Positions 27,220 to 44,265 of a stretch of 45,979 nt of DNA are shown one piece after another. The notes under the pieces are model-generated. The model ran no database searches. It had not been told where the DNA came from and was given only the letters and a program-made list of their open reading frames with translations. Numbering within the stretch: the first letter of the stretch is position 1; each line of letters begins with the position of its first letter. The position numbers were made by a program, and so were the translations under genes. The stretch is from Candidatus Eiseniibacteriota bacterium (GTDB lineage: Bacteria > Eisenbacteria > RBG-16-71-46): NCBI GenBank assembly GCA_041492985.1, contig JBGPXY010000003.1, forward strand, positions 1 to 45,979, in the 5' to 3' direction.

Positions 27220-29058
27220 TCAGGCCCGGGCCGCTTTGGCTTTCTTCTGGTAGACCCGATCGATGTTCCAGAGGAGCCGGTGTGGAATCACGCTCGGCTG
27301 GACGTTGCCGAACCGGTTGCTGACCGGGAGCCGCATGATCTGCGTCGGCAGCCAGATGAAGTAACACTCCTTGTTGACGAGATCCTGCATCTCCCGGGAG
27401 ACCCGCTTGCGCTCGACCATGTCGAGGGCGCGCAAGTTCGCGTCCATCAGCCGGTCGAGCGCCGCATCGCTCGCGCTCTCCGGGTGCTCCTGACGGATGT
27501 TCCAGTAGTGGGTAGGCCCACTCGATCGCCAGACGTTCTGCGACATGCCCGGGTCGGGCGGCACGCCGCTCTGGAGACCGCCCAGGATGCTCTCGTACTG
27601 AAAGTCCTCGCGGATGTTCGTGATCAGGGTGTTGAAGTCCATCCCGGTCGGGATGCACTTGATGCCGACCTTGGCGAGGTCGTCGCGGATGAAGTTGACC
27701 ATCGCCATGCGCAGCGCATTGTCACCGTTCGTCTTCATGGTGAAGCTGACCGTGTGGCCCCGCGGGTCCTCGAGGATGCCGTCGCCGTCGCGATCCTTGT
27801 AGCCGAGGCTGGCGAGCAGCCGCTTCGCCCCCTCGGGATCGTAGTCGGCGCCGGTGACCTCGGGCGTGTACCAGACCTTGTTGCCCACCGTCATGGTGGA
27901 CCAGTTCTTGACCCCGTCCCCGTAGAACGGCCCGCGGATGAGTCCCTCGCGGTCGATCGCCATCGAAACGGCGCGGCGGAACTCGCGGTCGCTGAACCAG
28001 GCGTACTTGACCTTGTCGAGCACCGGCTCTCCGACCCGCTTCCCCTTGACCGGTCGCTTCGCCTTGACGGTGTTGAGGTTGAACCAGAAGAAGCTCGAGC
28101 TCAGCGACGGACCGACGTCGTAGAGGGTGAAATCATCCGCCTTCGCCCGGTCCATGTAGGTCTTGTAGTCCTCCGGTTTCACGTTGTCGAGCCCGTCCAG
28201 GTCGCCGGCCAGGAACTGGAGCGCGGCGGTGTTCTGATCGGGCACGATCCGGAACACCAGCTCGTCGAGATAAGGCAGCCGGCGGCCCTTGGGATCGACG
28301 CCGAACCAGTACGGGTTGCGCTCGAGGACGGTCTTCTCCCCCGGGACGTACTGCTTCAGACGCCAGGGTCCACTGGTGACGAGGCTCTCCGGTGGCGTGC
28401 TCACGCTGTAGGCCGAGCCGAAGCTGCCGTTGAGGAAGGCGCCCTCGAGGATGTGCTTCGGCATGATGCGGATCGAGCCGATGATCTGCCGCAACATCGC
28501 TGAAGGGACCGCCGTCTTCACCACGATGGTGTAGGAGTCGGGGGCCGAGAACTCGAACGGCTTGCCTTCGGCCTTCAATAGATCCTGCATCGAGGGGTGC
28601 AGCGCCGGGTCGTTGATCACCCGCACCGCGAACATGAAGTCGTCGGCGGTCATCGGGTGACCGTCCGAGAAGCAGGCGCCGCGGCGCAGGTGAAAGGTCG
28701 TCGTCAGCCCATCCGGGGTCTGCTCCCAGGATTTCGCGAACACGGCGATGTCCTGCTGCGTCCCGTTGTCGTAGTCGACCACGCTGGTGAAGAGCCTGCC
28801 GTCGGTGAGGTCGGTGGACGAACTCTCGTTGGCGAGGAGGGCGTTGAACGTCCGTGGCGGAGTGGTCTGCCCGAGGACGAAGCGGCCGCCGTAGCGGCCC
28901 ACCTCTGGCATATCGACCGTCATGGTGTCCACCGGCAGCGGATTCTTGTCCACGAAGGCGGAACCGGCGAGCCCGGCACTTCCGCCGCATCCTGCCAATG
29001 TCCACGCGGCCCCGAGCAACGCCGCGACCAGCCCGAACCACTCCCTGCGACTCGACAT
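27220..29058 (-). CDS. Peptide ABC transporter substrate-binding lipoprotein (SBP family 5)
   Basis: Lipobox LAGC, FSDGHPMTADD, SGPW, LERNPYW, FRRAVSMAIDR. Confidence 0.93.
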   Translation of the reverse strand: MSSRREWFGLVAALLGAAWTLAGCGGSAGLAGSAFVDKNPLPVDTMTVDMPEVGRYGGRFVLGQTTPPRTFNALLANESSSTDLTDGRLFTSVVDYDNGTQQDIAVFAKSWEQTPDGLTTTFHLRRGACFSDGHPMTADDFMFAVRVINDPALHPSMQDLLKAEGKPFEFSAPDSYTIVVKTAVPSAMLRQIIGSIRIMPKHILEGAFLNGSFGSAYSVSTPPESLVTSGPWRLKQYVPGEKTVLERNPYWFGVDPKGRRLPYLDELVFRIVPDQNTAALQFLAGDLDGLDNVKPEDYKTYMDRAKADDFTLYDVGPSLSSSFFWFNLNTVKAKRPVKGKRVGEPVLDKVKYAWFSDREFRRAVSMAIDREGLIRGPFYGDGVKNWSTMTVGNKVWYTPEVTGADYDPEGAKRLLASLGYKDRDGDGILEDPRGHTVSFTMKTNGDNALRMAMVNFIRDDLAKVGIKCIPTGMDFNTLITNIREDFQYESILGGLQSGVPPDPGMSQNVWRSSGPTHYWNIRQEHPESASDAALDRLMDANLRALDMVERKRVSREMQDLVNKECYFIWLPTQIMRLPVSNRFGNVQPSVIPHRLLWNIDRVYQKKAKAARA

Positions 29059-29093
29059 GGACCTCTCCCCCCGACGCGTTGTCAGCGTGCGAT

Positions 29094-29894
29094 TTAGACC
29101 GCGGGCGCAGTATAGGAATCGCTTGTCGGACCGGTCAACAGAAAGGCTCCCGCCGCGGCATCCACCCGCCGCGACCGCGGGCCCAGCTCGGCGGCGAGTG
29201 AATCGGCCCAGCGTTCGAGCGCCGGCTCGAGTCCGATCCAGGGCGCCGCACCCGCCGTGGCGGACGCGAGCGCCCCTCGCACGCGCTCACGGCGGGACTC
29301 GCTCAACGGGAGGTAGTCGGCCAGCCGCAGGTGCCCGGCCCCCAACAGCACGCTTCCCTGCTGGAGCAGGGCCCGGGCGGTCCGCCGCTGGGCGCTGCCG
29401 ACCAGCTTGCGACCGCCGAGCACCACCTCGTGGCGCGCCGTGGAGGCGAAGCAGGGCGCGGCCGGGGCGATCCGGCCGCGTCCGCCCGGAGCGTCGGAGC
29501 TTTCCGATCCGTCACGCGGCGCGAACGCCGCCGGCACGCCGAGGCGCAGGAGCGAGCGGACGATCAGCGCACTGGCGCGGGCATACGCCTCGCTCAGGCC
29601 GCCTCCCCAGTCCCGGTCGTCGAGCGACGCCGCCAGCGAGTACGTCCACTCCTCGGCGTGGAAGATGGCCCGTCCGCCAGTGGGGCGCGACGCCCAGGAA
29701 ATATCGTCCGATGCGCAGCGCGCGAGATCCAGCTCGCGCGCGGGCTCCTGGTTGAGCCCCAGGGTGATGCCGTGCGGCACGAATCGGAACAGGCGCAGAA
29801 CCGGCTCGGCCCCCGCCTCGGCGGCCGCGAGGAGTGCCGTGTCGCGGCGCATGTTCTCGCCCGGATCATGGGCACCGTCGCACCAGAGGATCAC
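29094..29894 (-). CDS. Lipoate-protein ligase / octanoyltransferase (LplA/LipM-like catalytic domain only)
   Basis: NMRRDTALL, LRLF, RPTGGRAIFH, PCF, KLVGSAQRR, LLQQGS; GTG start after GAGG. Confidence 0.88.
   Translation of the reverse strand: MILWCDGAHDPGENMRRDTALLAAAEAGAEPVLRLFRFVPHGITLGLNQEPARELDLARCASDDISWASRPTGGRAIFHAEEWTYSLAASLDDRDWGGGLSEAYARASALIVRSLLRLGVPAAFAPRDGSESSDAPGGRGRIAPAAPCFASTARHEVVLGGRKLVGSAQRRTARALLQQGSVLLGAGHLRLADYLPLSESRRERVRGALASATAGAAPWIGLEPALERWADSLAAELGPRSRRVDAAAGAFLLTGPTSDSYTAPAV
29109..29138 (-). promoter_or_regulatory. sigma70-type promoter of the peptide ABC operon (inside the ligase 3' end)
   Basis: TTGACC-18 nt-TATACT, about 50 nt upstream of the SBP ATG. Confidence 0.6.
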
Positions 29895-29968
29895 GACCGC
29901 CTCGAGACTCCGGAGACCGCGAACCCCCGGCTGCGTGTCGCCGGGGGCGGGAGCCGCGACATGGGTCC

Positions 29969-30661
29969 TTACCGAAGTCCGAGCCAGTCCTCGAGCAGGA
30001 ACTGGAACCGGCCGATCAGGAGCGAGATGCGCGACATCACCGTGTACCCGTAGCCGGCGCCGAAAGACACCATCAGGAAGAAGATGCCCAGCTTGGAGGC
30101 CACCGCAAGCCCACCCTTGTGCTCGCGGCTGTAGAAGAAGTAGAGCAGCGAGGTGATGAGGCCGACCGCGAACACCATGGCATTGAGGCTGGCGCCCAGG
30201 TCGCCGGAGATCCACAGCGGCTGCAGGCTCCCCTGGACCTGAGCCACGAAGTCGGCCTGCGCCGCTCCGGTGGTGCGGATGCCGGCGTAGACGCCGATGA
30301 TGACGGCGAGCGCCCAGCGCGAAAGCCAGCCGATCTTCCCGAACAGGCGGGTGAAGAGCAGCAGTCCGAGGATGCCGGGCACCACCAGGAAGATGCGGTA
30401 GTCGCCGAGACGTGGCAGGAAGAGCGATTGCAGGCCGGCCGGACCGGACGTGTTCACGAACGTATGGCTCAGGGGCTCCAGGAGATTCGGGACGATGACC
30501 GTCCAGAAGTTGAGGACGATGTAGTAGCCGGCCGAGACGCCGACGAACAGGTGTTCGGCGAACCGGTAGAACGGGTTGTCCTTGTACAGGAAGCTGAAGA
30601 TGCAGAGCGTGAGGAAGGCCCCCAGCCAGACGCTCAGATCGGGGCTCACATGGAAGCTCAC
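29969..30661 (-). CDS. Uncharacterised polytopic membrane protein (about 6 TM)
   Basis: 230 aa hydrophobic; motif-like SFLYKDNPFYRFAEHLFVGVSAGY and FGAGYGYTVMSR; GTGA overlap with the upstream gene. Confidence 0.85.
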   Translation of the reverse strand: MSFHVSPDLSVWLGAFLTLCIFSFLYKDNPFYRFAEHLFVGVSAGYYIVLNFWTVIVPNLLEPLSHTFVNTSGPAGLQSLFLPRLGDYRIFLVVPGILGLLLFTRLFGKIGWLSRWALAVIIGVYAGIRTTGAAQADFVAQVQGSLQPLWISGDLGASLNAMVFAVGLITSLLYFFYSREHKGGLAVASKLGIFFLMVSFGAGYGYTVMSRISLLIGRFQFLLEDWLGLR

Positions 30662-31485
30662 GCCGGCTCCCGCTTCTTCACCCGTTGGATGATGTTGCCG
30701 AGGACGATACAGAACGCCACGAAGATGTGGGCGAGCGACTGGGCATCCATGCCCTTGGTCGCCGTGCCCTTCTCGCCGCGCGCCTTCTCGTACTCCGCCG
30801 CCCCCGCCATGCCACCCAGCAGCCCGCGCAGCTGCCCCGACTGGAGATAGGGGTAGTATTCGGGCGCGCTCACCGCGGTGACCCCCGCGACCATGGGAAG
30901 ATGGAACCGCGAGTTCACCTGCTGGACCCATTCCTTGGTGCCGGGGAATCCGGCCGAGATGTTCACGAGCAGCGGGAAGCTCGAGTAGTCACGCACCCCC
31001 ATCATCAGCGGCAGCGTGTTGGTCTCGTTGCCGCGGTAGTCGCGCGGGAACGCGTTCTTGATCCCCTGCCCCATCAGCACCATGACCGCGTCATCCCCGG
31101 CCTTGTAGCCGAGATTGACCCAGTCCACGCCATAGCGCTTGTTCGGAAACTCGCGCGCGACGTCGTTGAGCGTCGCCTCGACCAGCCCCGGCCCGGCGTT
31201 CCACAGCACCGTCACCACCACCTTGCAGTCCTTGCGCAGGAGCTGGCGGAACGCGGTGCGATTCATCGGCACCATCTCGGGCCTGGCACTCGGGTCGTAG
31301 TCGCACGACATGAGCACGGTCGAGCCGTTGGGGAGGGCCTCGATCGCGTCGTTGAAGGCCTGGACCGGCGGCGAGACCTTGAGCGGCAGGCCGGCCGGGA
31401 AGATGAGCGGACCGGCGACCAGGAGTCCCATGACCAGGAACAGCCAGCGCCGGTCGAGCGTTTCGAGCCCGGTGGTCCACGACAT
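30658..31485 (-). CDS. Uncharacterised membrane-anchored alpha/beta protein (TM-domain-TM)
   Basis: N-terminal TM after DRR, alpha/beta core (YGVDWVNLGYKAG, GLLGGMAGAAEYE), C-terminal TM followed by QRVKKR. Confidence 0.85.
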   Translation of the reverse strand: MSWTTGLETLDRRWLFLVMGLLVAGPLIFPAGLPLKVSPPVQAFNDAIEALPNGSTVLMSCDYDPSARPEMVPMNRTAFRQLLRKDCKVVVTVLWNAGPGLVEATLNDVAREFPNKRYGVDWVNLGYKAGDDAVMVLMGQGIKNAFPRDYRGNETNTLPLMMGVRDYSSFPLLVNISAGFPGTKEWVQQVNSRFHLPMVAGVTAVSAPEYYPYLQSGQLRGLLGGMAGAAEYEKARGEKGTATKGMDAQSLAHIFVAFCIVLGNIIQRVKKREPA

Positions 31486-31488
31486 CGT

Positions 31489-32166
31489 CTAGTCCTCCCC
31501 GCTCAGGTAGGAACGCTCGATGCCGAGGATGACCCGCAGGCCGGTGGCCATCACCCCGAGTGCGGCGCCGATCAGGATGGCGCGCTTCGCGGTGTTCTGC
31601 GGGACCGACATGATCCACTCCTGGATGGTGCTCAGATGCAGCGTGTGCGGCACGCCGGGCAGCCACTTGGCCTGGAACAGCCAGTCGCTCAGCAGGTCGC
31701 CGAGCGGCACACGGCCCAGCATGACGATCAGCGCCGCGACCGCCAGCAACCCTGCCTCGACGGTCCGGATGCGGAAGGCGCGGAACGCCGCGGAGGCGAT
31801 GAAGAAGGCGAGCAGCGCGAACATGGTGGACGACATCGGCGAGTACACCCAGTCGTAGATCCACTTCGAGCGCATGGTCGGATTGAGGAACCCCTTCCCC
31901 TCGATCAGGCCGATGACCACCGTCGCCAGCAGCGAGACCACCAGGACGATCTTGTACGGCCAGCCCGGCTTCTTCTTGTAGATCGCGTCGAAGTTCACCC
32001 GCAGCGCGTTCGCCCCGCCCAGCACGTAGCCGAACCCCACCAGGATGACCGCGCTCGCCTGCAGGAAGTCCGCCGGGACGCTCACCCACTCGTGCGGCAC
32101 GAAGAACGACAGGATCATGAACAGCCCGATCACCGCCGTGATGAAGAGAGGGACTTCGCGTTTCAC
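31489..32166 (-). CDS. Uncharacterised polytopic membrane protein (5-6 TM)
   Basis: AGGAGG RBS; PMSSTMFALLAFFIASAAFRAFRIR, AKRAILIGAALG...LRVILGIER. Confidence 0.87.
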   Translation of the reverse strand: MKREVPLFITAVIGLFMILSFFVPHEWVSVPADFLQASAVILVGFGYVLGGANALRVNFDAIYKKKPGWPYKIVLVVSLLATVVIGLIEGKGFLNPTMRSKWIYDWVYSPMSSTMFALLAFFIASAAFRAFRIRTVEAGLLAVAALIVMLGRVPLGDLLSDWLFQAKWLPGVPHTLHLSTIQEWIMSVPQNTAKRAILIGAALGVMATGLRVILGIERSYLSGED

Positions 32167-32176
32167 CGACCGCCTC

Positions 32177-33391
32177 CTACTGGGTCATCATCCACTTCGT
32201 GAAGCCGTGCAGGTTGAGGGTCTCGAGGATGCACCCCACGATCACCGAGGCGATGATGATGATCTTCATGAGGTCGGTGCCCTTGAGCCCGCCCACCAGC
32301 TTGGGCTCACCGGACAAGTAGGCGCTCGCTGCGTATAGCTCTTCGCCGATGAGCGTGTAGTCGCAGGCGACCACGAAGAACGGCAGCTGGTGCACGTTCG
32401 CCGTGCCGGCCACCTGGATCGCCCCGGTCGCGAACCCGGTCTCGGCGAGCAGCAGCGACTCGGCGAAGAACGACCCCATGAAGATGTGGGCCGCCGGCCG
32501 ATCGCGGAGCATGATGCCGGTGACCGCCGCCACGTAGGCGAACTGCTCCGGCGAAACGAAGCGCACGCTGTCCGGGTCGTACGCCTCGGGCCGGCCGGCG
32601 TGCAGATAGCCGGCCTTCACCATCTCCTCGGCGATGGTGAACGGGATCGGATAGGTCACCGGGACGGTGATCGGCGTCTCGTAGCGCGCGGTCAGCTTGG
32701 CGACGCTCTCGAGGATCACCAGCGAGGCCACGGTCTGGATGTCGCTGATGTCCTGGATGCCGGGCACGTAGAGCACCGAGCGGCCCATCTCGGTGGCGCG
32801 GCCGATCGCTTCCTCGATCGCGTCGATGCCCGGGATGCGGCGGACGAACGGCTTCTTCCCCGCCTGCGCGCTGGCGATGTAGTAGAGGACGAAACCGAAG
32901 AACAGGATCGTGCCCACCAGGACGCTGCCGCGGGTCTGGTTGACCCACTGCGAGGTCGCCCGCACCGGGCCGGTCACGCTGCCGGCCAGCGTCAGCCCCC
33001 CGGGCCCCTGGGCGTCGATGCGGTAGAAGTACTCGGCGCCACGCGCCACGCCCTGGTCCATCTTGGAGATGGTGCCGGCCGCGACCGAATCCACCACGAC
33101 CCACGGACCGCCCGGGCTCTCGGCGCGCGCCACGTAGTACTGGGTGACGACGAGGCTCTTGGGGACGTCGTCGGGGGACGCTTTCCAGTCGAGCTGGATG
33201 CCGCGTCCCGCGTCGTTGGCGACATCGAGGGCGACCAGCCCCGAGGCGGGTCGGGGCGTGGGCATGGTTGTGGCCGCGATCGAATCCCGGTGGGTGGTCT
33301 GGGCCGCGGCGCTGGCGGCGAGGAGGAAGGCGGACGCGAGCGCGATGGCCCAGCCGGTGCCCGGCGCATCGCAGCGTGGCCTTCGTGGCAC
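32177..33391 (-). CDS. Signal peptide + FN3 domain + TM + DUF6754-like alpha/beta domain + TM
   Basis: AAGGAGG RBS 5 nt before GTG 33391 (ATG 33454 is an alternative); FN3 pattern (LDW...YYVAR...YFYRI); RRIPGIDAIEEAIGRATEMG, FFAESLLLAE, DYTLIGEELYAASAYL. The DUF name is from memory and not verified. Confidence 0.82.
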   Translation of the reverse strand: MPRRPRCDAPGTGWAIALASAFLLAASAAAQTTHRDSIAATTMPTPRPASGLVALDVANDAGRGIQLDWKASPDDVPKSLVVTQYYVARAESPGGPWVVVDSVAAGTISKMDQGVARGAEYFYRIDAQGPGGLTLAGSVTGPVRATSQWVNQTRGSVLVGTILFFGFVLYYIASAQAGKKPFVRRIPGIDAIEEAIGRATEMGRSVLYVPGIQDISDIQTVASLVILESVAKLTARYETPITVPVTYPIPFTIAEEMVKAGYLHAGRPEAYDPDSVRFVSPEQFAYVAAVTGIMLRDRPAAHIFMGSFFAESLLLAETGFATGAIQVAGTANVHQLPFFVVACDYTLIGEELYAASAYLSGEPKLVGGLKGTDLMKIIIIASVIVGCILETLNLHGFTKWMMTQ

Positions 33392-33470
33392 CGGTACCTC
33401 CTTGCCCTGGACACCGCGGGTCCGGCCAGCGGTCGGCGTCGCCCCCTCGTCCATCGCGTGAACCGGCGCG

Positions 33471-33500
33471 AACCTAGCAACCGGCCGCGAACGGTGTCAA
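33471..33500 (-). promoter_or_regulatory. sigma70-type promoter before the four membrane genes
   Basis: TTGACA-18 nt-TAGGTT with TGn extension. Confidence 0.62.
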
Positions 33501-33538
33501 CGCAAATGGGCGGGATGGCGTGGGTCCCCGAGCGGTCC

Positions 33539-34666
33539 TCAGTCCTCGATCAGCTCCACGTTCGCGCGCGGCACCACCGCCCGCGAGCGGTCGTCGGCGA
33601 ACTCGACCGTCATGACCCGGACCCGCGCTTCGGTCTCCAGCGGCTGGAGCTCCGGCGGCAGCTCGACCACGCGCGCGATGCGACCGAAGTACGGTTCGCG
33701 GATGACGCGCAGCACCGAGCCGATCTCCAGTCCCAGGGTCGCCGCCACGGCGCGCTGTCCGCCGGGCTGGCCGACGGCGCGCGGGATCACGATCTCGGGA
33801 CGCATGACGCCGGCCCGGATCTGCGTCGCGCCGCTCACCGACGCCTGATGCCCTTCGTGGGATCCCAGGAGCTTCCACGTGCGCTCGGCCATCCGGATGC
33901 GGCCGAAGCCCTCGGTGAGCACGAGCGTGAAGCCCAGATCCTCCGCGCCGGTGATCGCGACGCCGAGATCGCGACCCAGCAGCTGGCGCAGGTCGCGGTC
34001 GTCGAATCCTCCCACGACCACCGCCGCGATCTCGAGCTCGCGCGCGCGCATGAGCGTGGCGTGCGAGACGTAGGAGCCGCCCACGACCACACAGCCCTTG
34101 TGGGCGCTGGTGAGCTTCGCGGCGGACAGCTCCTCGTCGGGCGAGCCGGCCACCACGCGCAGCGCGCCGAAGGTCTCGCCGCCGACGCCGAAGATGCCCT
34201 GCATCAAGGCACCCTCGGCCTCGACGATGACGCCCTCCTCGGGGAGCACTTCGGCCACGCGCCCCTGCACGTACGCCTCGATCTGCACGGGGATGGGCGG
34301 CTCGCGCAGGATGAGCTGCCCGGTGATGGGCGAGACGCTCTCGATCGTGCCGTCGGCGGGAGCCGTGGCCTTCTGACGGACCAGCCCGAACAGGCTCTTG
34401 CCCTCGGCGATCACCGCGCTCTTGCGGATGGGCGCGCCGACCGGCACGGTGAGCGCGTCGGGCACGCGCGCGGGATCGATCGCCAGCTTGGCGGCGATGT
34501 TGACCGTCTGGACGTTGCCGGGCAGCTGGGTGCGTGCGACCACGGTGTCGGCCGACACCTGGTCGCCGACCGCGACCAGCACCTCGCCCTTGAGCGGCAG
34601 CCGGCGTTCGCGTCGCAGCACCGCGTGGTCGGTGACCCGGAGACCCGGCGTGTAGGCGTGCGCCAT
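33539..34666 (-). CDS. Uncharacterised soluble protein with repeated barrel-sandwich hybrid (lipoyl/RnfC-N-like) motifs and a C-terminal KOW/SH3-like domain
   Basis: 375 aa; GEVLVAVGDQV, PVGAPIRKSAVIA, APADGTI, AYVQGRV; IGSVLRVIREPYFGRIARV; TGATG overlap with the glmL-like stop. Confidence 0.8.
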   Translation of the reverse strand: MAHAYTPGLRVTDHAVLRRERRLPLKGEVLVAVGDQVSADTVVARTQLPGNVQTVNIAAKLAIDPARVPDALTVPVGAPIRKSAVIAEGKSLFGLVRQKATAPADGTIESVSPITGQLILREPPIPVQIEAYVQGRVAEVLPEEGVIVEAEGALMQGIFGVGGETFGALRVVAGSPDEELSAAKLTSAHKGCVVVGGSYVSHATLMRARELEIAAVVVGGFDDRDLRQLLGRDLGVAITGAEDLGFTLVLTEGFGRIRMAERTWKLLGSHEGHQASVSGATQIRAGVMRPEIVIPRAVGQPGGQRAVAATLGLEIGSVLRVIREPYFGRIARVVELPPELQPLETEARVRVMTVEFADDRSRAVVPRANVELIED

Positions 34667-36501
34667 CACACCTCCCGCGGGTAGAGGTCGAGCGCCTGGT
34701 TCCACGCCCGCAGCCGCGCGATGCGCTCGTGCGGAACGGCGGGCAGCGTGAACGGCCGCCGTCCGCGCGCATCGACGATGAGCCCCACCACACCCCCGGT
34801 GACATCCGCCTCGAGCGGCTTCCCCTTGCCGGCGCCGAGATCAAAGCCGCGCTCGGGGAAGGCGGTGAGGCGCACGAGCCCCTGCTCGGGCAGCGGGAGC
34901 AGCGCCAGGTCCCCGAACGCCACGCGCTTCGCCACCGGCGGACCGCCCTGCGGGGTCAGCTCGATGGTCATGCACGGCTGCCCGACCTTGGCGCTGCCGA
35001 TCGGCGCCAGCACCGCGCCCAGCCGGACCAGGCAATCGCGTTCGAACACCTGGGTCGCGGCTTCCTCGTGCACGGTCGAGAGCACGCCGAGTTGGGGGGC
35101 CATGAAGATGCTGTCGACCGCGAGGTGGGTGAGCCCTTCGGGCAGGAACGCGTCCACCATCATGAGCGCGGCCTGGACGCGCCGTGGCGCGTGCGAGAGC
35201 ACGCCTCCCGATCCGACCAGGAGCCCCAGGTCGCCCAGATTCACCAGGGTGGCGCCGCTCTCGGTCTGCGACATGATGTCCGAGATGGTGCGCTCGGTCT
35301 GCACACCCTTGAGCCCGACGGCCAGCGCCTTGTGCTGCTCGAAGGCGAGCCGGAGCGCTTCGCGGGCGATCGCCTGCTCGATGACCAGATCCTCGAGACT
35401 CTGGGGGATGGTCGTCGGCCGGATCATCTTGTTCTTCACCCGGTTCCTCAGGTCGACCTCGTCCACCGCGAAGGGCACCCAGCGGAGGATGTTCTCGATG
35501 CCGGCCTCGGCCATGACGTTCGAGACCGAGTAGCTCATGCCGAGGTTGGCGGAGACCGTGCGGTTGAAGACGCCCTGAAACACCGAGAACACGTCGGTGG
35601 TCGCCCCGCCGATGTCCACGCCCACCACCGCGAGCTGGTCGCGTTTGGCGATCGCCTCGATGATGATGCCGACCGCCCCCGGCGTCGGCATGATCGGCAC
35701 CGGCGACCAGGTCATGAGCTTCTTGTATCCGGGCGCATGCGCCATGACGTGCTCCATGAAGAGCTCGTGGATGGCGTCGCGCGCGGGCCCGAGGTTCTCG
35801 CGCTCCATCGCCGGGCGCAGGTTCGGCACCACGCTCAGCGCGGTGCGTTCGCCGAGCGTCTCGCGCACCACGCCGGCGGCGTCCTTGTTGCCGGCGTAGA
35901 TGACCGGCAGCCGGTAGCCGGCGCCCAGCCGCGCCTTGGGATCGGCGGCGAGCAGGATCTCGGCCATCTCGGCGACACGGCGCACGTCCCCGCCGTCCGT
36001 GCCCCCGGAGAGCAGGATCATGTCGGGCCGCAGCTGGCGCAGTCGGCGGATCTTCTCGTGCGGACGCCGTCCGTCGTTGAGGGCGATGACGTCCATCACG
36101 ATCGCCCCCGCCCCCAGCGCCGCGCGTTGCGCGCTCTCGCCCGTCATCTGCAGCACCAGCCCCGAGACCATCATCTGCAGCCCGCCGCCGGCACTCGAGG
36201 TGGATACGTAGAGATCGACGCCCTCCTCGCCCGCCTGCGGGGTGATGATGCGCTCGCCGTCGAGGATGCGGCGTCCGGCCAGTTCCTCCACCTCGCGCAC
36301 CGCGTTCAGCACGCCGCGCGTGACGTCTTCGAAGGGCGCCTCGACGGTGGTCGGCGCCTCGCCACGCACGATCAGGCGGTAGCCGTCGCCGCGCTTCTCG
36401 ATCAGGATCGCCTTGGTGGTCGTGGACCCGCAATCGGTGGCGAGGATGGAACGGATGGATGCGGGGTCGATCGGGCTGGCCTCCATGGTCTCCGGCGTCA
36501 C
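34666..36501 (-). CDS. GlmL-like (glutamate mutase accessory 'L' family) ASKHA-fold ATPase with a C-terminal extension
   Basis: DCGSTTTK (phosphate 1), SSAGGGL, GGTDGG, IYAGN, PTPGAV, DIGGATTDVFS (phosphate 2), RTVSANLGMSYS, GSGG. Confidence 0.85.
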   Translation of the reverse strand: MTPETMEASPIDPASIRSILATDCGSTTTKAILIEKRGDGYRLIVRGEAPTTVEAPFEDVTRGVLNAVREVEELAGRRILDGERIITPQAGEEGVDLYVSTSSAGGGLQMMVSGLVLQMTGESAQRAALGAGAIVMDVIALNDGRRPHEKIRRLRQLRPDMILLSGGTDGGDVRRVAEMAEILLAADPKARLGAGYRLPVIYAGNKDAAGVVRETLGERTALSVVPNLRPAMERENLGPARDAIHELFMEHVMAHAPGYKKLMTWSPVPIMPTPGAVGIIIEAIAKRDQLAVVGVDIGGATTDVFSVFQGVFNRTVSANLGMSYSVSNVMAEAGIENILRWVPFAVDEVDLRNRVKNKMIRPTTIPQSLEDLVIEQAIAREALRLAFEQHKALAVGLKGVQTERTISDIMSQTESGATLVNLGDLGLLVGSGGVLSHAPRRVQAALMMVDAFLPEGLTHLAVDSIFMAPQLGVLSTVHEEAATQVFERDCLVRLGAVLAPIGSAKVGQPCMTIELTPQGGPPVAKRVAFGDLALLPLPEQGLVRLTAFPERGFDLGAGKGKPLEADVTGGVVGLIVDARGRRPFTLPAVPHERIARLRAWNQALDLYPREV

Positions 36502-36809
36502 CCCTTGCCGCGGGCCGCGCGCTTGAGACGCGCCGCGTCCTCCCCCGCCTCGATGCGGAGGATGAGCGCTTCGATCGCGTCCCGTCGCTCGAGCAGGGCG
36601 GTGACGCGCTGGTAGTCGGTGAAGCGGAACAGGGACTGGATCATCGGCTCGAAGAAGATGAGCGCCTGGCTGGCGATCACCGACAGCGGCTTGGCGGTCT
36701 CGAGGGTGAGGATCGCCGGCACCGACATGTGCAGCTCGACCACGCGGGTGGCGACCCGCTCGATCAACGCCTGGTCGGCGGCGGACAGCGACGGGGCGTC
36801 AGAGGCCAT
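36498..36809 (-). CDS. Small uncharacterised helical protein (103 aa)
   Basis: VPAILTLETAKPLSVIASQALIFFEP...LLERRDAIEALILRIE; overlaps both neighbours. Confidence 0.75.
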   Translation of the reverse strand: MASDAPSLSAADQALIERVATRVVELHMSVPAILTLETAKPLSVIASQALIFFEPMIQSLFRFTDYQRVTALLERRDAIEALILRIEAGEDAARLKRAARGKG

Positions 36810-37218
36810 GGTCGTGGAGTCGCGCCGCGAGATCGGCGAGCAGGGCGTCACGGTCGCGCGAGGGCAATGGCAGGAGCAGGCCGCGGTAGGGATCGAGCCA
36901 GTGCGGTCGCGCGTAGGGCGAGACCAGCACGCCCGCGGGGCGGGTCGCCGCCCGTCGCAGCGTCGCCCACGGCCGGCGGACGGTGCCGAGCGGGCCGCGT
37001 CGCTCGACGCCTTCCTCGTCCACCCGGCAGCGCGCCGGCGAGAGCACCGGCGACAGGGTCCCCAGCACCGCCAGGCCGAGCACCACCCGGACCGCCAGCG
37101 GTTCGCTCAGGCTGGCCACCACCAGGCAGATCCCCAGCGTCATGAGCGCGCCCGCGCCCGCCGCCAGCGGCCGGTCGCGCCACGGGTTGAAGGACCATTC
37201 GAGCGCGGCCGCGCTCAT
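36799..37218 (-). CDS. Small membrane protein (2 TM + short beta, PH-like domain)
   Basis: Two hydrophobic segments then CRVDEEGVE...RRPW...GVLVSPY; ATGA overlap with the gcvPB stop. Confidence 0.72.
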   Translation of the reverse strand: MSAAALEWSFNPWRDRPLAAGAGALMTLGICLVVASLSEPLAVRVVLGLAVLGTLSPVLSPARCRVDEEGVERRGPLGTVRRPWATLRRAATRPAGVLVSPYARPHWLDPYRGLLLPLPSRDRDALLADLAARLHDHGL

Positions 37219-38717
37219 GCGGGACTCGGGGTCTCGGGGACCGGGGCCGGGCTCACCCGTCCCGGGCTGCGCCAGTGCAGCACCAGCTCGCGGGCGGCGC
37301 GGCCCTCGTCGAGGCGGCTGACCGGCGTGGTGAGCGGGGCCTCGAGCAGGAGCTTCGGGTTCTCGCGCGCCTCCTGGGCGATGCGCTCCATCGCCGCCGC
37401 GAAGTGGTCGAGACGGTCGAGGGTCTCGGTCTCGGTGGGCTCGATCATGAGGGCCTCTTCGACGATGAGCGGGAAGTAGACCGTCGGCGCGTGCACGCCG
37501 AAGTCCAGCAGCCGCTTCGCCACGTCGAGCGTCTTGACGCCGTGCTTGCGCAGCGCGCGCCCGGAGAGCACGAACTCGTGCATGCAGTGCTCGGGGTGCG
37601 GAAGCTCGTAGGTCTTCGCCAGCCGCCGCATGAGGTAGTTCGCGTTGAGGATCGCGGTGCGGCTGGTCTCGCGCAGCCCCTCGGGGCCGAGCGTCGAGAG
37701 ATAGACGAGCGCGCGCACGAGCATGCCGAAGTTGCCGTGGAACGAATGCACCCGCCCGATCGAGTGCGGGCGGTCGTGGCTGAGACGGAGCATGCCCTCC
37801 CGTTCCACCACCACCGGCACCGGGAGGAAGGGCTCGAGGTGGGCGGCGACCGCGACCGGTCCGGCCCCCGGGCCGCCGCCTCCGTGCGGGGTCGAGAAGG
37901 TCTTGTGCAGGTTGATGTGCATGACGTCGAAGCCGAGGTCCCCGGGTCGGACCAGCCCGATCAGCGCGTTCAGGTTCGCGCCGTCCATGTAGACCTGCGC
38001 GCCGGCCTCGTGCGCGATCCTCGTGATCTCCCGCACCCGGGACTCGAACAGCCCGAGCGTGTTGGGAACCGTCAGCATCACCGCGGCGGTCCGGTCATCG
38101 AGGGCCTTGCGCAGCACCTCGAGGTCGACGGTGGCGTGCTCCTCCGAGGCGATCGTGACCGCCTCGTAGCCCACCAGGTTCACGCTCGCGGGATTGGTCC
38201 CGTGGGCCGAGTCGGGAACGATCACCCGTCGGCGGCGGTCCCCCTCGCCGCGCGAGCGGTGCCACGCGCGGATCATGAGCAGGCCGGTGATCTCGCCCTG
38301 GGCGCCCGCGGCCGGCTGCGTGCCAACCGCCGCGAACCCGGTGATCTCGGCGAGGGCCAATTGCAGATCTCGGATCACCCGCAGCGCTCCCTGGTTCGCT
38401 TCGTCGGGCGCCAGGGGATGCGCGAGTGCCAGACCCGCGAGGGCGGCAATCTCGTCGTTGATCTTGGGATTGTGCTTCATGGTGCAGGAGCCCAGCGGGT
38501 AGAAGCCGCGGTCGATGTGGTGGTTGAGGGTCGAGAGCTCGACGAAATGGCGCACCACCTCGGGCTCGCTCACCTGGGGCAGCCGAAGCTCCGCGCGCAG
38601 GCGGGCGCCGGGCAGGCGATCGGCGAGCGGCCGCACCGGGACGTCGCACGCCGGCAGCGCCGGGCCCCGGTGCCCGGGGCCACCCTGCTCGATGAGGAGA
38701 CGGCGCGGCATCGTCAT
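37215..38717 (-). CDS. gcvPB: Glycine dehydrogenase (decarboxylating) subunit 2
   Basis: YPLGSCTMKHNPK, QPAAGAQGE, SAHGTNPAS, PLP Lys in HINLHKTFSTPHGGGGPG, EPTETE. Confidence 0.96.
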   Translation of the reverse strand: MTMPRRLLIEQGGPGHRGPALPACDVPVRPLADRLPGARLRAELRLPQVSEPEVVRHFVELSTLNHHIDRGFYPLGSCTMKHNPKINDEIAALAGLALAHPLAPDEANQGALRVIRDLQLALAEITGFAAVGTQPAAGAQGEITGLLMIRAWHRSRGEGDRRRRVIVPDSAHGTNPASVNLVGYEAVTIASEEHATVDLEVLRKALDDRTAAVMLTVPNTLGLFESRVREITRIAHEAGAQVYMDGANLNALIGLVRPGDLGFDVMHINLHKTFSTPHGGGGPGAGPVAVAAHLEPFLPVPVVVEREGMLRLSHDRPHSIGRVHSFHGNFGMLVRALVYLSTLGPEGLRETSRTAILNANYLMRRLAKTYELPHPEHCMHEFVLSGRALRKHGVKTLDVAKRLLDFGVHAPTVYFPLIVEEALMIEPTETETLDRLDHFAAAMERIAQEARENPKLLLEAPLTTPVSRLDEGRAARELVLHWRSPGRVSPAPVPETPSPA

Positions 38718-40051
38718 CGCCCGCCCCCGGCTCGCTTCAACACGTCGATCCATCGCTCGATCTCGGCCAGGCTGCGTTGCTCGGTGACCGCGACCAGCAG
38801 CCACCGCCGCCATTCGGGGCGGAACTGCCCGAGGGCGACCCCCGGGAGCACGCCGACCTGCCGGCCCACCCGCACGACCTCGTCGGCATCGACCGGGCAC
38901 TCGAGCACGAACTCCCGGAAGAACGTGCCTGCGTGCGCCTGGGCGTAGCCCGGCAGCGCCGCGGCGAGCGCGGCCGCATGGTGCGTCTTCTGCACGCACG
39001 ACTCCGCCACCTCGGTGAGCCCGAGCTTCCCCAGCAGGCCGAGATAGATGGTGGCGCGCAGGGCGAGCAGGCCCTGGTTGGTGCAGATGTTCGAGGTCGC
39101 CTTCTCGCGCCGGATGTGCTGCTCGCGGGTCTGGAGCGTCAGCACGAAGCCGCGCCGGCCATGACGATCGACGGTCTGCGCCGCGATCCGCCCCGGCATG
39201 CGCCGGACCAGCCCCTGGGCGCACGCGAAGAAGCCGAGCAGTGGACCACCGAAGGAGGGCGGGTTCCCGAGGCACTGCCCCTCGCCGACGACGATGTCGG
39301 CGCCCGTAGCGCCCGGCGGCTCCAGCAGCGCGAGCGCGATCGGATCGCAGACCGCGATCGCGAGGGCTCCCGCCTGATGGGCGAGCGCGTGGATCGCCTG
39401 CGGGTTCTCGAGCAGGCCGAAGAAGTTCGGGTGCTGGTAGAGGACGGCCGCCACGTCGGGCCCGACGGCGGCGGTGAGATCCTCGAGGGCACAGATCCCC
39501 GCACGATCCGCCACCACGACGACGTCGCGCTCCAGATAGGTGCGCAGGACCTCGAGATAGTTCGGGTGGAGGGCTCCGGCGACGACGATACGCGCGCGCC
39601 CGGTCTGGTGTCGGGCCAGCAGGGCCGCTTCCACCGCCGCGGTGGCGCCATCGTAGAGCGAGGCGTTCGCGACGTCGGTCCCGGTCAGCTCGACGATCAT
39701 GCTCTGGAACTCGAACATCGCCGTGAGCGACCCCTGCGCCACCTCGGGCTGGTAGGGCGTGTAGGCGGTCGCGAACTCCGAGCGCATGGCGATGGCGTTC
39801 AGCGCGGCGGGGATGTAGTGGTCGTACAGCCCCCCACCCATGAAGGACGCCGTGTGGTCGGCATCGTTCATGCGCGCCCAGGCGCCGAAGCGGCGTCGGA
39901 CCTCGATCTCCGAGAGCGGTCCCGGCACCTCGAGCGCGCGCTTCAGGCGCACCTCTTCGGGCACCGAGGCGATGAGGTCCTCGAAGCGCGGCACGCCGAT
40001 GGCGGCCAGCATACGCTCCTCCTCGCCGCGCGAGAGGCCGATGAAGCTCAC
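38714..40051 (-). CDS. gcvPA: Glycine dehydrogenase (decarboxylating) subunit 1
   Basis: TAYTPYQPEVAQG, NASLYDG, LTLQTREQHIRREKATSNICTNQ. Confidence 0.96.
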   Translation of the reverse strand: MSFIGLSRGEEERMLAAIGVPRFEDLIASVPEEVRLKRALEVPGPLSEIEVRRRFGAWARMNDADHTASFMGGGLYDHYIPAALNAIAMRSEFATAYTPYQPEVAQGSLTAMFEFQSMIVELTGTDVANASLYDGATAAVEAALLARHQTGRARIVVAGALHPNYLEVLRTYLERDVVVVADRAGICALEDLTAAVGPDVAAVLYQHPNFFGLLENPQAIHALAHQAGALAIAVCDPIALALLEPPGATGADIVVGEGQCLGNPPSFGGPLLGFFACAQGLVRRMPGRIAAQTVDRHGRRGFVLTLQTREQHIRREKATSNICTNQGLLALRATIYLGLLGKLGLTEVAESCVQKTHHAAALAAALPGYAQAHAGTFFREFVLECPVDADEVVRVGRQVGVLPGVALGQFRPEWRRWLLVAVTEQRSLAEIERWIDVLKRAGGGR

Positions 40052-40437
40052 GCGTGGTCCTGATCGACGAGCTGATCGTATTCGTCGGCGTCGAGGAGCT
40101 TCTTGATGTCGTCGGCGTGATCCGGCCTGATCCGGATTATCCAGCCCTCGGCGAACGGCGACTCGTTGACGAGCCCCGGGTTGTCCGCCAGCGCGTCGTT
40201 GACCGCCACCACCTGGCCGGCGACCGGGGCGTACAGGTCGCTCACCGTCTTCACCGCCTCGACCACGCCGAAGGGCTTCTTGGCGTCGAGCCGACGGCCG
40301 ATCTCCGGAAGCTCCACGAACACCACGTCCCCCAGCTGGTCGGTGGCATAGCTGGTGATGCCGACGGTGATCACGCCGCCCTCCAACCGCGCCCACTCGT
40401 GCTCGGCGGTGTATCGCACATCCTCTGGGTACGACAC
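40048..40437 (-). CDS. gcvH: Glycine cleavage system H protein
   Basis: YTAEHEW, GITSYATDQLGDVVFVELP, lipoyl Lys in VEAVKT, APVAG, GWI. Confidence 0.96.
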   Translation of the reverse strand: MSYPEDVRYTAEHEWARLEGGVITVGITSYATDQLGDVVFVELPEIGRRLDAKKPFGVVEAVKTVSDLYAPVAGQVVAVNDALADNPGLVNESPFAEGWIIRIRPDHADDIKKLLDADEYDQLVDQDHA

Positions 40438-40460
40438 GGATCCTCCCTGGTCACGCCGCC

Positions 40461-41564
40461 TCAGCGGCGCGAGCCCCGCGTGTAGAACGGCCGCTTCACG
40501 ACGCGTGTGGCGATGCGACTGGGACCGGCGAGCACGTCGAGCGGCGTGTCGAGCGCGCTCACGCCGGTCTCGACGTAGGCCATGGCGATGGCGCACTCGA
40601 GGCTGGGACTGAACGTCCCACTCGTGACCCGCCCCACCGGACGCCCTCCGGACTCGACCGTCATCCCGTGCCGCGGGACGCGACGGCCTTCCGCCTCCAA
40701 CCCGACCAGCTTCCGGGTCAGACCCTGCTCCTTCTGCTTCGCGAGCGCGTCGCGCCCGGAAAAGGCGCCCTTGCTCAGCTTCACCGTCCAGCCGAGCCCC
40801 GCCTCGAGCGGCGTGGTCGTCTCGTCGATGTCGTTCCCGTAGAGCATGTAGGCCATCTCGAGGCGCAGGGTATCGCGGGCGCCCAGCCCGACCGGCTCGA
40901 TCCCCAGCGGCTGTCCCGCGCCCATCGCCCCGGCCCAGACGGCCGCCGCGTCGCCGCCCTTCATGTAGAGCTCGAAGCCGTCCTCTCCCGTGTACCCGGT
41001 CCGGGCGATCACCGCCGGGACCCCGAACAAGGGTCCCTCGACGAACCGGTTCGAAGGCATGAGGAGTGCCTCGTCGGGGACGTGGCCCCGGAGCACCTCG
41101 GCGGCCTTCGGCCCCTGGATGGCGAGCAGGGCGGTCTCCTCCGAGCGATCGGTCAGCTCGACCCCGGCCGGGCACTGCGCCTTCAGCCAGGCGAGATCCT
41201 TGGCGATGTTGGATGCGTTCACAACCAGCATGAACTCATCGGCGGAACGGTAGACGTAGAGGTCGTCGACGATGCCCCCGTCGGGCCGGCACATGACGCT
41301 GTACATGGCCTGCCCGACCTCCATCCCCGCCACGTCATTGGCGAGCGCCCCGTCGAGGAACCGCGTCGCCCCGGCACCCCGTACCTTGAACTCGCCCATG
41401 TGGGAGATGTCGAACAGCCCGACACCGGTCCGAACCACCTGATGCTCGCGCACGTCGCCCGTGTACCGCAGGGGCATCTCGAAGCCCGCGAAGTCCACGA
41501 GCCTGGCGCCGGCGGCCTTGTGAAATGCATGGAACGGCGTGTGTTTGAGGGTGGAAACGGACAC
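40461..41564 (-). CDS. gcvT: Glycine cleavage system aminomethyltransferase
   Basis: GLFDISHMGE, GIVDD, QGP, RTGYTGEDGFE, GLGARDTLRLE. Confidence 0.96.
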   Translation of the reverse strand: MSVSTLKHTPFHAFHKAAGARLVDFAGFEMPLRYTGDVREHQVVRTGVGLFDISHMGEFKVRGAGATRFLDGALANDVAGMEVGQAMYSVMCRPDGGIVDDLYVYRSADEFMLVVNASNIAKDLAWLKAQCPAGVELTDRSEETALLAIQGPKAAEVLRGHVPDEALLMPSNRFVEGPLFGVPAVIARTGYTGEDGFELYMKGGDAAAVWAGAMGAGQPLGIEPVGLGARDTLRLEMAYMLYGNDIDETTTPLEAGLGWTVKLSKGAFSGRDALAKQKEQGLTRKLVGLEAEGRRVPRHGMTVESGGRPVGRVTSGTFSPSLECAIAMAYVETGVSALDTPLDVLAGPSRIATRVVKRPFYTRGSRR

Positions 41565-41596
41565 GAGGGAAGACTCCGGGGTGGCGAAACGGACGG

Positions 41597-41625
41597 AAGT
41601 TATCGGAAGGCGTGGGGGCGGTCAA
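41597..41625 (-). promoter_or_regulatory. sigma70-type promoter of the gcv operon
   Basis: TTGACC-17 nt-TAACTT, about 30 nt before the gcvT GTG. Confidence 0.6.
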
Positions 41626-41676
41626 GGCGAGCGGACCCGCGAGCGTCCCCGCGGAGTGACGCCGGCGAGCGATGGG

Positions 41677-42885
41677 CTACCGGGCGGCTCCCTTCAGCAC
41701 CCCCAGCTCCTGTCCCACGCGGGTGAACGCATCCACCGCGCGGTCGATGTGCTGCGGCTCGTGCGCCGCGGAGAGCTGCACACGGATCCGCGCCTGGCCC
41801 TTCGCCACCACCGGGAACGAGAAGCCGATGACGTAGATCCCGTGCTCGAGGAGACGACGGGCCATCTCGTGCGCGAGACGCTCGTCGTAGAGCATGATGG
41901 GCACGATCGGGTGCCCCCCGGGCTTGATCTCGAAGCCCGCCGCCGTCATCCCGTCTCGGAACCGCCTGGTGTTCGCTTCGAGCCGGTCGCGCAGCGCGGT
42001 CGAGCGCGAGAGCAGGTCGAACACCGCGATGCTCGCGCCGACCACTGCCGGCGGGAGCGAGTTCGAGAACAGGTACGGCCGCGACCGCTGGCGCAACAGC
42101 TCGATGATCTCGCGCCGACCGGTGGTGAACCCGCCCAGCGCGCCACCCAGCGCCTTCCCGAGCGTCCCGGTGATGATGTCGACCCGGCCCATCACGCCCC
42201 GGTATTCGGTGCTCCCGCGTCCGGTCGCGCCCAGGAAACCGGTGCCGTGGCAGTCGTCCACCATCACCAGCGCCCGGTAGCGGTCGGCGAGATCGCAGAT
42301 GGCCTTCAGATCGGCGACCGTCCCGTCCATGCTGAACGCGCCGTCGGTGACGATGAGCTTGTGGCGGCAGCCCTTCGCCTCGGCCTCCTTGAGGCAGCGC
42401 TCGAGGTCTCCCATCTCGTCGTTCGCGTAGCGCCAGCGCTGCGCCTTGCACAGCCGCACCCCATCGATGATCGAGGCGTGGTTGAGCGCGTCCGAGATGA
42501 CCGCGTCCTCCTCACCCAGCAGGGGCTCGAACACGCCGCCGTTGGCGTCGAAGCAGGCCGCGTAGAGGAGGGTGTCGTCGGTGTGGAGGAACTCGGCGAT
42601 CTTCCGCTCGAGGGTCTTGTGCAGGTCCTGGGTCCCGCAGATGAACCGGACCGAGGAGAGCCCGAACCCGCGCTCGTCGAGTGCCTTGTGGGCGGCGGCG
42701 ATCACCTCCGGATGGCTCGACAGCCCGAGGTAATTATTGGCGCAGAACACCAGCACCTCGCGCCCATCCGCGAGCCGGACCGCCGGGCCCTGCGCCGAGA
42801 TCAGCACGCGCTCGTCCTTCCACAGCCCCGCGTCGCGGATCGCCTTCAGCTCGGCCTGCAGTTGCGGTCGCAGCGTCTCGTACAC
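41677..42885 (-). CDS. kbl: 2-amino-3-ketobutyrate CoA ligase (glycine C-acetyltransferase)
   Basis: [45 protein letters not shown]. Confidence 0.96.
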
Positions 42886-42898
42886 GCTCGATCCTCCC

Positions 42899-44008: not shown

Positions 44009-44265
44009 GACGGGCGTCCTTCCGCTGAGGGAGCCAGACTGGTCGAGGATGACCCGGGAGGTTCCGCGGACGTGCGGGCGTCGACGCCCCCGGTGCGCGT
44101 CACAGGATGCCGTTTCCCACGACGGAAGTCACGGGCGCGCGCTTCGCGCCGGATGGCGCCCCCGATCACCTGTCGAACGTAGACATACACGATCACCGGC
44201 GCGACCAGGACGAGCTGCAGCACGACGAGCCCGACGTCGCGCGGGCGAGGCGGTCGGCGGCTCAT
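44005..44265 (-). CDS. Small hypothetical single-TM protein (86 aa)
   Basis: Hydrophobic [20 protein letters not shown]; ATGA overlaps with both the uvrA stop and the tdh start. Confidence 0.55.

Follow-up and report, generated by a model that had tools for sequence, protein, structure and literature searches.

Here we describe a conserved three-part system made up of a GlmL-like ASKHA-fold ATPase, a partner protein of 375 amino acids (aa) that we call D375, and a four-gene membrane cassette (E-F-G-H) whose first gene encodes a DUF6754 protein. The system lies in a stretch of 45,979 nucleotides (nt) from a Candidatus Eiseniibacteriota bacterium (assembly GCA_041492985.1, contig JBGPXY010000003.1), hereafter called the window, which has a G+C content of around 70% and belongs to a 2.54-Mb genome that is 70% complete. 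Together with two small genes, A139 and B103, the genes for the three parts form a run of eight minus-strand genes between gcvPB of the glycine cleavage operon and a gene for an LplA-like ligase. This arrangement had been noted in the original prediction, made from the letters of the window, and the positions and translations of the open reading frames (ORFs) agree with it. That the system exists is far more certain than the transport role that we propose for it below.

Joint presence and absence of the three parts

We scored the three parts by PF13941 (ATPase), a D375 profile and PF20539 (DUF6754). In a sample of 201 Eisenbacteria genomes, which includes one unpublished genome (G015), PF20539 was detected in 183, PF13941 in 184 and the D375 profile in 182; all three were present in 179 genomes, none in 15 and a partial set in 7. 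The 15 genomes without any part include some that are 93–96% complete, and four of the seven partial genomes are at most 81% complete. Lineages with relatives that carry at least two cassettes are also among the triple absences.

The same all-or-none pattern was observed in a phylum in which the genes are unlinked. In the 61 genomes of the phylum of G204, a genome whose record is labelled Calditrichaeota, PF20539, PF13941 and D375 were found in 30, 27 and 28 genomes, respectively, with all three in 27, none in 31 and a partial set in 3. In genome G212, the ATPase gene lies at 0.10 Mb, the D375 gene at 0.44 Mb and DUF6754 genes at 1.97, 3.58 and 3.68 Mb. In WOR-3, the corresponding counts were 57, 56 and 57 of 61 genomes (all three in 55, none in 3, partial in 3). 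Five genomes that have a lone D375 gene each contain exactly one ATPase gene (424–445 bits) and one to three DUF6754 genes elsewhere. The co-occurrence that the original prediction requires therefore holds in all three samples, unlinked genes included, and we conclude that the ATPase, D375 and the four-gene membrane cassette are one conserved three-part system.

The ATPase–D375 pair and the membrane cassette

D375 is predicted to bind the ATPase. Complex prediction for the pair scored 0.81, 0.79 and 0.79 in three runs (median 0.79; best of three controls 0.00), with contact agreement between runs of at least 95% and a partner predicted local distance difference test (pLDDT) score of at least 84; the mark used for such predictions is reached by 58 of 80 solved complexes and by 2 of 110 mismatched pairs, counts that are only roughly valid for user-made alignments. 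The predicted interface lies on mostly invariant blocks on both sides and includes residues beside the phosphate and adenosine loops of the ATPase. Natural fusions point the same way: PF13941 is also present in 62 of 64 long D375 relatives (around 660–1020 aa), among them in-frame ATPase–D375 fusions of about 990–1005 aa. At the junctions of P0275 (a cluster of 223) and P0288, a full ATPase is joined in frame, through a short linker, to D375 minus its first methionine; these two are used as the fusion evidence because the linker of P0242 looks frameshifted. Fused forms carry the labels Neomarinimicrobiota, Planctomycetota, Cloacimonadota and Fermentibacteria, and P0296 represents a divergent fusion type without the KOW end. 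A 707-aa protein in which D375 runs into E (P0241) was rejected as a fusion; because it is a single sequence that keeps the signal peptide of E and ends inside DUF6754, it probably reflects a lost stop codon. Prediction and fusions thus back the ATPase subcomplex of the original prediction. Its description as soluble survives in part, because A139 has two predicted membrane helices and a bPH_6 domain.

Gene order links the pair further. All 20 Eisenbacteria ATPase loci show gcv genes followed by B103, the ATPase gene and D375, with A139 detected 5′ of B103 in 16 of them. Among the best 80 D375 loci in a species-level genome collection, the gene immediately upstream encodes the ATPase in 50, a DUF6754 gene follows downstream in 41, and neither is present in 30. 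Among the upstream neighbours of the ATPase gene, the most regular is B103, for which Pfam, NCBIfam and PADLOC gave no match; it also precedes that gene in six of six WOR-3 loci and in L068, L084, L085, L120 and L162. The bPH_6 match of A139 (PF10756; 25.1 bits, E = 1.8e-5) is marginal, lying above the gathering cut-off of 22.

The ATPase, encoded by one gene copy in the genome of the window, matches PF13941 over the full model (positions 1–450; E = 7.8e-123, 411 bits against a gathering score of 27). Its nucleotide-binding blocks (TDCGSTTTK, VDIGGATTD and GSGGVLSHAP) vary little among 24 sequences, drawn from several phyla, with 57–73% identity to it; identity between phyla is 64–73%, with one divergent paralogue at 57%, and counterparts from five genomes of other phyla are 64–67% identical to the window protein. 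By contrast with the family match, its scores fall below the cut-offs of the named subfamilies: 215.5 bits for NCBIfam GlmL (NF040745; equivalog cut-off 475), 197.9 bits for Or-4 (NF040744; cut-off 600) and 161.3 bits for TIGR01319 (cut-off 204). Weak Pfam matches to Hydantoinase_A and BcrAD_BadFG were also seen, and a PDB sequence-profile search returned nothing at E ≤ 0.01. The mutase gene glmE (PF06368) was above cut-off in none of 101 Eisenbacteria (five weak matches, all below); a search of the 70%-complete genome to which the window belongs did not reveal it, nor did the translated and Pfam-scanned ORFs of the window include a mutase gene. The original prediction had likewise seen no mutase in the window, and the ATPase does not track B12-dependent mutases.

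Some genomes contain further ATPase relatives. One WOR-3 genome encodes an extra 476-aa PF13941 protein (G287:C3:27095–28480) that scores 546 bits, compared with around 425–445 for the system ATPase, and that may be a canonical GlmL. Divergent second ATPase–partner pairs occur in addition to the main pair in a metagenome-assembled genome of Bacillota (L124:4323–7557) and in G270:C15, G299:C48, G315:C4, G319:C14 and G287:C101. The ATPases of these pairs have 550–640 aa and the partner-like proteins are 38–40% identical or weaker; of the five such genes from WOR-3, three are interrupted by internal stops.

In a library clustered at 50% identity, the D375 family counts 1207 representatives at E ≤ 1e-30. 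The AlphaFold2 (AF2) model of the protein (pLDDT 85.2) comprises a barrel-sandwich hybrid (residues ~49–123), a swivelling beta/beta/alpha domain (~152–298) and a KOW/SH3-like end (~310–375); the barrel-sandwich label of the original prediction was thus apt for the first domain, and fold matches add the other two. The barrel-sandwich domain matched RnfC (Z 7.5) and NqrA (Z 7.3), the swivelling domain Enzyme I (Z 9.3, root-mean-square deviation 2.7 over 107 residues), RraA (Z 9.0), rifampin phosphotransferase (Z 8.6) and aconitase X (Z 7.9), and the KOW/SH3-like end gave Z 7–8.3. Because these values are modestly above background, we take the matches as indicating fold class, not function.

Sequence searches were in keeping with this domain plan. 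No Pfam family was above cut-off for D375, and among 29 family members there were weak matches to Biotin_lipoyl (20), RnfC_N (15), NQRA_N (8), KOW (3) and, in one member at E = 0.05, PEP-utilizers (PF00391). A PDB profile search with D375 gave a KOW-type match alone (E = 0.004), a Foldseek search with the model gave no global match, and no reactivase was among the fold or Pfam matches listed for D375 and the ATPase. His203, which by its motif may correspond to the catalytic histidine of the mobile domain of phosphoenolpyruvate (PEP)-utilising enzymes, is not conserved; relatives have R, Y or K at that position.

The third part is recognized by E, which matches PF20539 over model positions 2–256 of 257 (E = 4.9e-113, 376.9 bits against a gathering score of 27). 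E consists of a signal or anchor helix, an outside Fn3 domain, a transmembrane (TM) helix, the DUF6754 domain of around 200 aa and a second TM helix; its start is most likely the GTG at 33391, which is preceded by AAGGAGG and gives the 404-aa product. The Fn3 domain matched titin in a PDB profile search (E = 1e-23) and gave fold Z values of 11–12.7. The outside domain is variable with an Fn3 fold: those of ten E paralogues yielded one weak fn3 match and no other Pfam family. The DUF6754 part had no match in the PDB profile search; Fn3 domains took up the matches listed in the fold search with the E model, in which the DUF6754 part is poorly modelled, and the ESM Atlas offered no usable match for E residues 150–404 or for G.

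The other subunits belong to no known family. No Pfam family was found for F, G or H when members of each were searched, and PDB profiles gave a best E of 0.22 for F, 0.81 for G and no match for H, for which residues 4–230 were used as the query. Six of 26 F members showed a weak TMD0_ABC match (best E = 1.7e-4) and one a match to Rnf-Nqr (E = 0.066). Kinship of E with G or of F with H was rejected (hhalign probability below 1% for both pairs). For all eight proteins, Pfam and NCBIfam gave no match to the ABC, ECF, TRAP, Rnf or decarboxylase families, as had been said before, and neither ABC_tran nor a permease family was among the matches. A defence system was rejected, as none of the eight proteins had a PADLOC match at E ≤ 0.01.

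The cassette is a stable unit that occurs in one to nine copies per genome in Eisenbacteria. Across 20 Eisenbacteria loci, F, G and H come after the DUF6754 gene on the same strand in 21 of 22 cases, the exception being an extra E after an H, and the order E-F-G(-H) is kept in genomes of other phyla. Extra E genes without F, G and H of their own adjoin complete cassettes in L040, L191–L193 and L196, which hints that E is the exchangeable subunit. In the split cassettes of L192 and L193 (G219:C17 and G245:C6), E is separated from F by three to four additional ORFs and G from H by a gene for an NYN-domain protein, apparently through insertion into the operon. In one stand-alone cassette (L050:10375–10998, G013:C23), the F gene contains an in-frame stop and may be a pseudogene or reflect a sequencing error.

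We propose that the eight genes are one copy of a three-part system in which an ATPase–D375 motor serves membrane modules, most likely in transport, a reading that we hold tentatively as quite possibly right. The ATPase–D375 complex would be an ATP-driven conformational motor with a layout like that of the reactivase alpha subunit. The cytoplasmic DUF6754 domain would be the site at which one such complex docks on each E-F-G-H module to power or gate membrane work, most likely transport. The copy between gcvPB and lplA may serve glycine cleavage, for example through glycine uptake, and the paralogous cassettes may serve other substrates; A139, as a membrane protein with a bPH domain, and B103 would be small proteins that accompany the ATPase. 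In its widest form, the proposal is that a novel type of membrane machine driven by ATP is common across uncultured phyla in and around the FCB group, and that in it one ASKHA motor per cell, with a swivelling-domain adaptor and no P-loop, would serve up to nine four-subunit modules, one of them feeding glycine cleavage; so stated, it is unlikely.

Several points weigh against the proposal. No subunit carries a transporter signature in Pfam or NCBIfam. The complex prediction covered the ATPase–D375 pair, and contact with E-F-G-H is something that we infer; the pLDDT of the E model is below 50 over residues ~286–373. The swivelling-domain Z values of 8–9 barely exceed the background of 7–8 stated for the fold tool, and no sequence or fold match to a reactivase is among those listed. 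The co-occurrence counts are strong but not statistical evidence, because related genomes are not independent, and where a genome has the gene order of the window with one cassette, joint loss can be a single deletion. Most cassettes stand apart from the ATPase gene, beside unrelated and non-recurrent neighbours. In 5 of the 20 Eisenbacteria ATPase loci, no cassette is found 3′ of D375; a sixth, L135, ends around 900 bp after D375.

Gene order and the link to glycine cleavage

In reading order on the minus strand, the window carries tdh, kbl, gcvT, gcvH, gcvPA, gcvPB, the eight ORFs and a gene for an LplA/LipB-type ligase (Table 1). The order of all eight ORFs is kept in other genomes, from which we conclude that they are real genes; homologues of gcvT-gcvH-gcvPA-gcvPB likewise keep their order in related loci, in many of which lplA is the last gene of the cluster. 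The tdh (369-aa ORF) and kbl (402-aa ORF) genes, assigned from their translations and their order in relatives, occupy 41677–44008 of the minus strand. Because they lie directly before gcvT, the whole operon encodes the conversion of threonine to glycine and on to C1 units.

Table 1 Features of the locus in reading order of the minus strand (positions in the window)
Feature	Positions	Strand	Length	Content	Basis or remark
gcvT	40461–41564	minus			translation
gcvH	40048–about 40440	minus			translation
gcvPA	38714–40051	minus			translation
gcvPB	37215–38717	minus			translation
A139	36799–37218	minus	139 aa	small membrane protein, two predicted TM helices and bPH_6	hydropathy (TM helices)
B103	36498–36809	minus	103 aa	no known family	
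GlmL-like ASKHA-fold ATPase	34666–36501	minus	611 aa	PF13941 core at residues 19–490 and conserved C-terminal extension of ~120 aa	
D375	33539–34666	minus	375 aa	three domains; N-terminus MAHAYTPGL nearly invariant	AF2 model
Spacer between D375 and cassette	33455–33538	minus	84 nt	contains TTGACA-N18-TAGGTT	
E (DUF6754 protein)	32177–33391	minus	404 aa		PF20539 and hydropathy
F	31489–32166	minus	225 aa	polytopic, ~6 TM helices; no known family	hydropathy
G	30658–31485	minus	275 aa	TM helix, ~214-aa domain, TM helix; no known family	
H	29969–30661	minus	230 aa	polytopic, 5–6 TM helices; no known family	GTG start at 30661 overlaps the G stop
LplA/LipB-type lipoate–protein ligase	29094–29800	minus		downstream of cassette	PF21948 E = 3e-23; PF03099 E = 1.1e-10

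The chain of overlapping stop and start codons described for gcvH to D375 was confirmed at every junction: GTGA for gcvH/gcvPA, ATGA for gcvPA/gcvPB, ATGA at 37218–37215 for gcvPB/A139 (where the A139 start overlaps the gcvPB stop), an 11-nt overlap for A139/B103 (ATG at 36809, stop at 36801–36799), GTGA at 36501–36498 for B103/ATPase and TGATG at 34668–34664 for ATPase/D375. The close packing of the membrane genes was also read in the sequence, with gaps of 10 nt and 3 nt and then a GTGA overlap. An internal TTGACA promoter had been suggested ahead of these genes. The hexamer is present in the spacer (33500–33495) and is followed after an 18-nt gap by TAGGTT (33476–33471), but the latter agrees with TATAAT at three of six positions and is weak, and a sigma-70 consensus scan of 28900–44300 did not call the site; it called one site, outside the spacer, against 0.7 expected. 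At gathering score, no Rfam family, glycine riboswitch included, was found in the window.

A second explanation starts from this setting: the ATPase–D375 complex, with B103, would be a chaperone or reactivase of the pyridoxal-phosphate-dependent P protein or would act in H-protein maturation; the cassette would supply or remove substrate, and the link to gcv would be primary and the scattered arrangements secondary. Consistent with it, all 20 Eisenbacteria ATPase loci lie directly 3′ of gcv genes, and the order gcvPB-B103-ATPase-D375-cassette(-lplA) is found in 14 of them and in six of six loci of a WOR-3 subclade, which has two tandem cassettes there. The order gcvPB-B103-ATPase recurs in L068, L084, L085, L120 and L175, and the many clusters that end with lplA fit the same idea. 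NCBIfam names describe relatives of GlmL as accessory proteins of cofactor-dependent mutases, and an ATPase with a swivelling domain recalls the layout of reactivases. However, Poribacteria, Calditrichaeota, Hydrothermus and further WOR-3 genomes have the parts scattered at sites remote from gcv, where lone D375, ATPase and cassette genes have unrelated housekeeping genes as neighbours. Genes for glycine cleavage are also found where the system is missing: in the phylum of G204, 60 of 61 genomes have gcvP, against 27 with the system, and gcvH is kept in ten of ten Eisenbacteria without it, in three of which kbl-gcvT-gcvH-lplA are directly adjacent. Lipoamide dehydrogenase was above cut-off in 60 of 61 Eisenbacteria (a count that again includes G015), and LipA in five of five genomes with the module and five of five without it, so that both are kept in carriers and non-carriers of the module alike; replacement of the L protein and a role in lipoate scavenging or uptake were accordingly rejected. 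This explanation, moreover, leaves the presence of up to nine cassettes per genome and the tight co-occurrence with the membrane module unaccounted for. As a whole it is somewhat unlikely.

The tie to glycine and threonine catabolism made in the original prediction thus holds as a recurrent gene order in Eisenbacteria, WOR-3 and some other genomes, but not as a general rule, given the scattered parts and the gcv genes that do without the system. We conclude that glycine cleavage does not require the system, and that the system is unrelated to B12 mutases.

Two further loci bear on this region. In L155 (G046:C7, 2040–2321), a DUF6754 gene fragment of ~94 aa, 49% identical to E of the window, lies between gcvH and lplA in a genome otherwise without the system, and looks like the scar of a cluster deletion. 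In L175 (5599–5793, G205), from a low-GC WOR-3 genome, gcvPA and gcvPB are separated by a 64-aa cysteine-rich ORF.

Other explanations and comparison with known systems

PilM, FtsA and MreB are nucleotide-dependent cytoplasmic scaffolds, and the ASKHA protein might similarly be a scaffold for bitopic and polytopic membrane partners of an envelope machine for surface display, secretion or envelope upkeep. Within the same loci, identity is higher for the ATPase (64–74%) than for gcvPB (49–61%), E carries a variable outside domain of Fn3 fold, and in one Calditrichaeota clade the cassette stands beside DUF3108, lepA and signal peptidase I genes, all of which would suit an envelope function. We nevertheless regard it as improbable: the weak Hydantoinase_A and BcrAD_BadFG matches place PF13941 nearer the hydantoinase/GlmL branch than the actin-like families, and the conserved neighbours may stem from kinship alone.

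It is also conceivable that two unrelated modules happen to be neighbours, E-F-G-H being an autonomous family of secondary transporters and ATPase–D375 a separate soluble enzyme or chaperone. The distance of most cassettes from the ATPase gene, the ATPase-D375-lplA loci that have no cassette (L068, L084, L096 and L120) and the 7, 3 and 3 partial genomes of the three phyla would be expected if this were so. Against it, one phylum with unlinked genes has all three parts in 27 genomes and none in 31, the 15 triple absences in Eisenbacteria include lineages with multi-cassette relatives, and the adjacency of D375 to the cassette is repeated in two phyla; we find this explanation quite improbable. 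That the ATPase is an ordinary GlmL/MutL accessory of a B12-dependent mutase encoded elsewhere, as its PF13941 membership and the name 'glutamate mutase L' given to relatives would have it, has next to no chance and was rejected, being already contradicted by GlmL and Or-4 scores far under their cut-offs and by glmE, which was above cut-off in none of the 101 Eisenbacteria and did not turn up in the 70%-complete genome of the window.

The ATPase family and DUF6754 are already on record, whereas the three-part system itself is undescribed: no description of it was found in the literature searched (with DUF6754, GlmL, PF13941 and other terms), supplementary files not being covered, and no known transporter or complex type in Pfam, NCBIfam or PADLOC matches its make-up. 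For the DUF6754 domain, F, G and H, novelty is judged by sequence searches, folds aside. To our knowledge, the only known role of GlmL-type proteins, itself poorly understood, is to assist B12 mutases; in this system, the most conserved branch of the GlmL family stands without a mutase. D375 is a family without a Pfam model, and three cassette subunits fall in no family. The set is present in most sampled Eisenbacteria and WOR-3 genomes and in about half of those of a third phylum. Its function, once known, would explain a core trait of several uncultured phyla and could uncover an unfamiliar mode of ATP coupling to membrane work or an accessory of glycine cleavage not known so far.

Among known systems, GlmL/MutL and Or-4 of ornithine degradation share PF13941, the ASKHA fold and the full 450-position match with the ATPase, which differs from them in scoring less than half of the NCBIfam equivalog cut-offs and in its extra conserved C-terminal ~120 aa. 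Unlike GlmL, it has no mutase that we could find in the genomes searched, is paired with or fused to D375 and co-occurs with a membrane cassette. Diol- and glycerol-dehydratase reactivases (DdrAB/GdrAB) resemble the pair in layout only, as an ATPase with a swivelling-type domain; the reactivase alpha subunit is described as an Hsp70-like ATPase domain and a swivelling domain in one chain (PMC7674605). In the system described here, the two domains are on two chains or fused in the opposite order, and it has neither a B12 enzyme nor a beta subunit. The PEP-utilising enzymes PTS Enzyme I and rifampin phosphotransferase, which are among the best fold matches of D375 residues 152–298, differ in that the D375 system has no PEP or ATP-grasp domain and His203 varies. 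With RnfC and NqrA, D375 has in common the N-terminal barrel-sandwich hybrid alone, and neither the Fe–S, flavin and NADH-binding parts nor the other subunits of Rnf and Nqr are present. Transport with a shared energiser, as in ECF transporters, ABC transporters with MsiK-type ATPases and TonB-ExbBD, is an analogy of logic: the system described here has no P-loop ATPase and no homology to those families, and its coupling is suggested by analogy. Like them, it sets one single-copy unit beside several paralogous membrane modules in the same genome.

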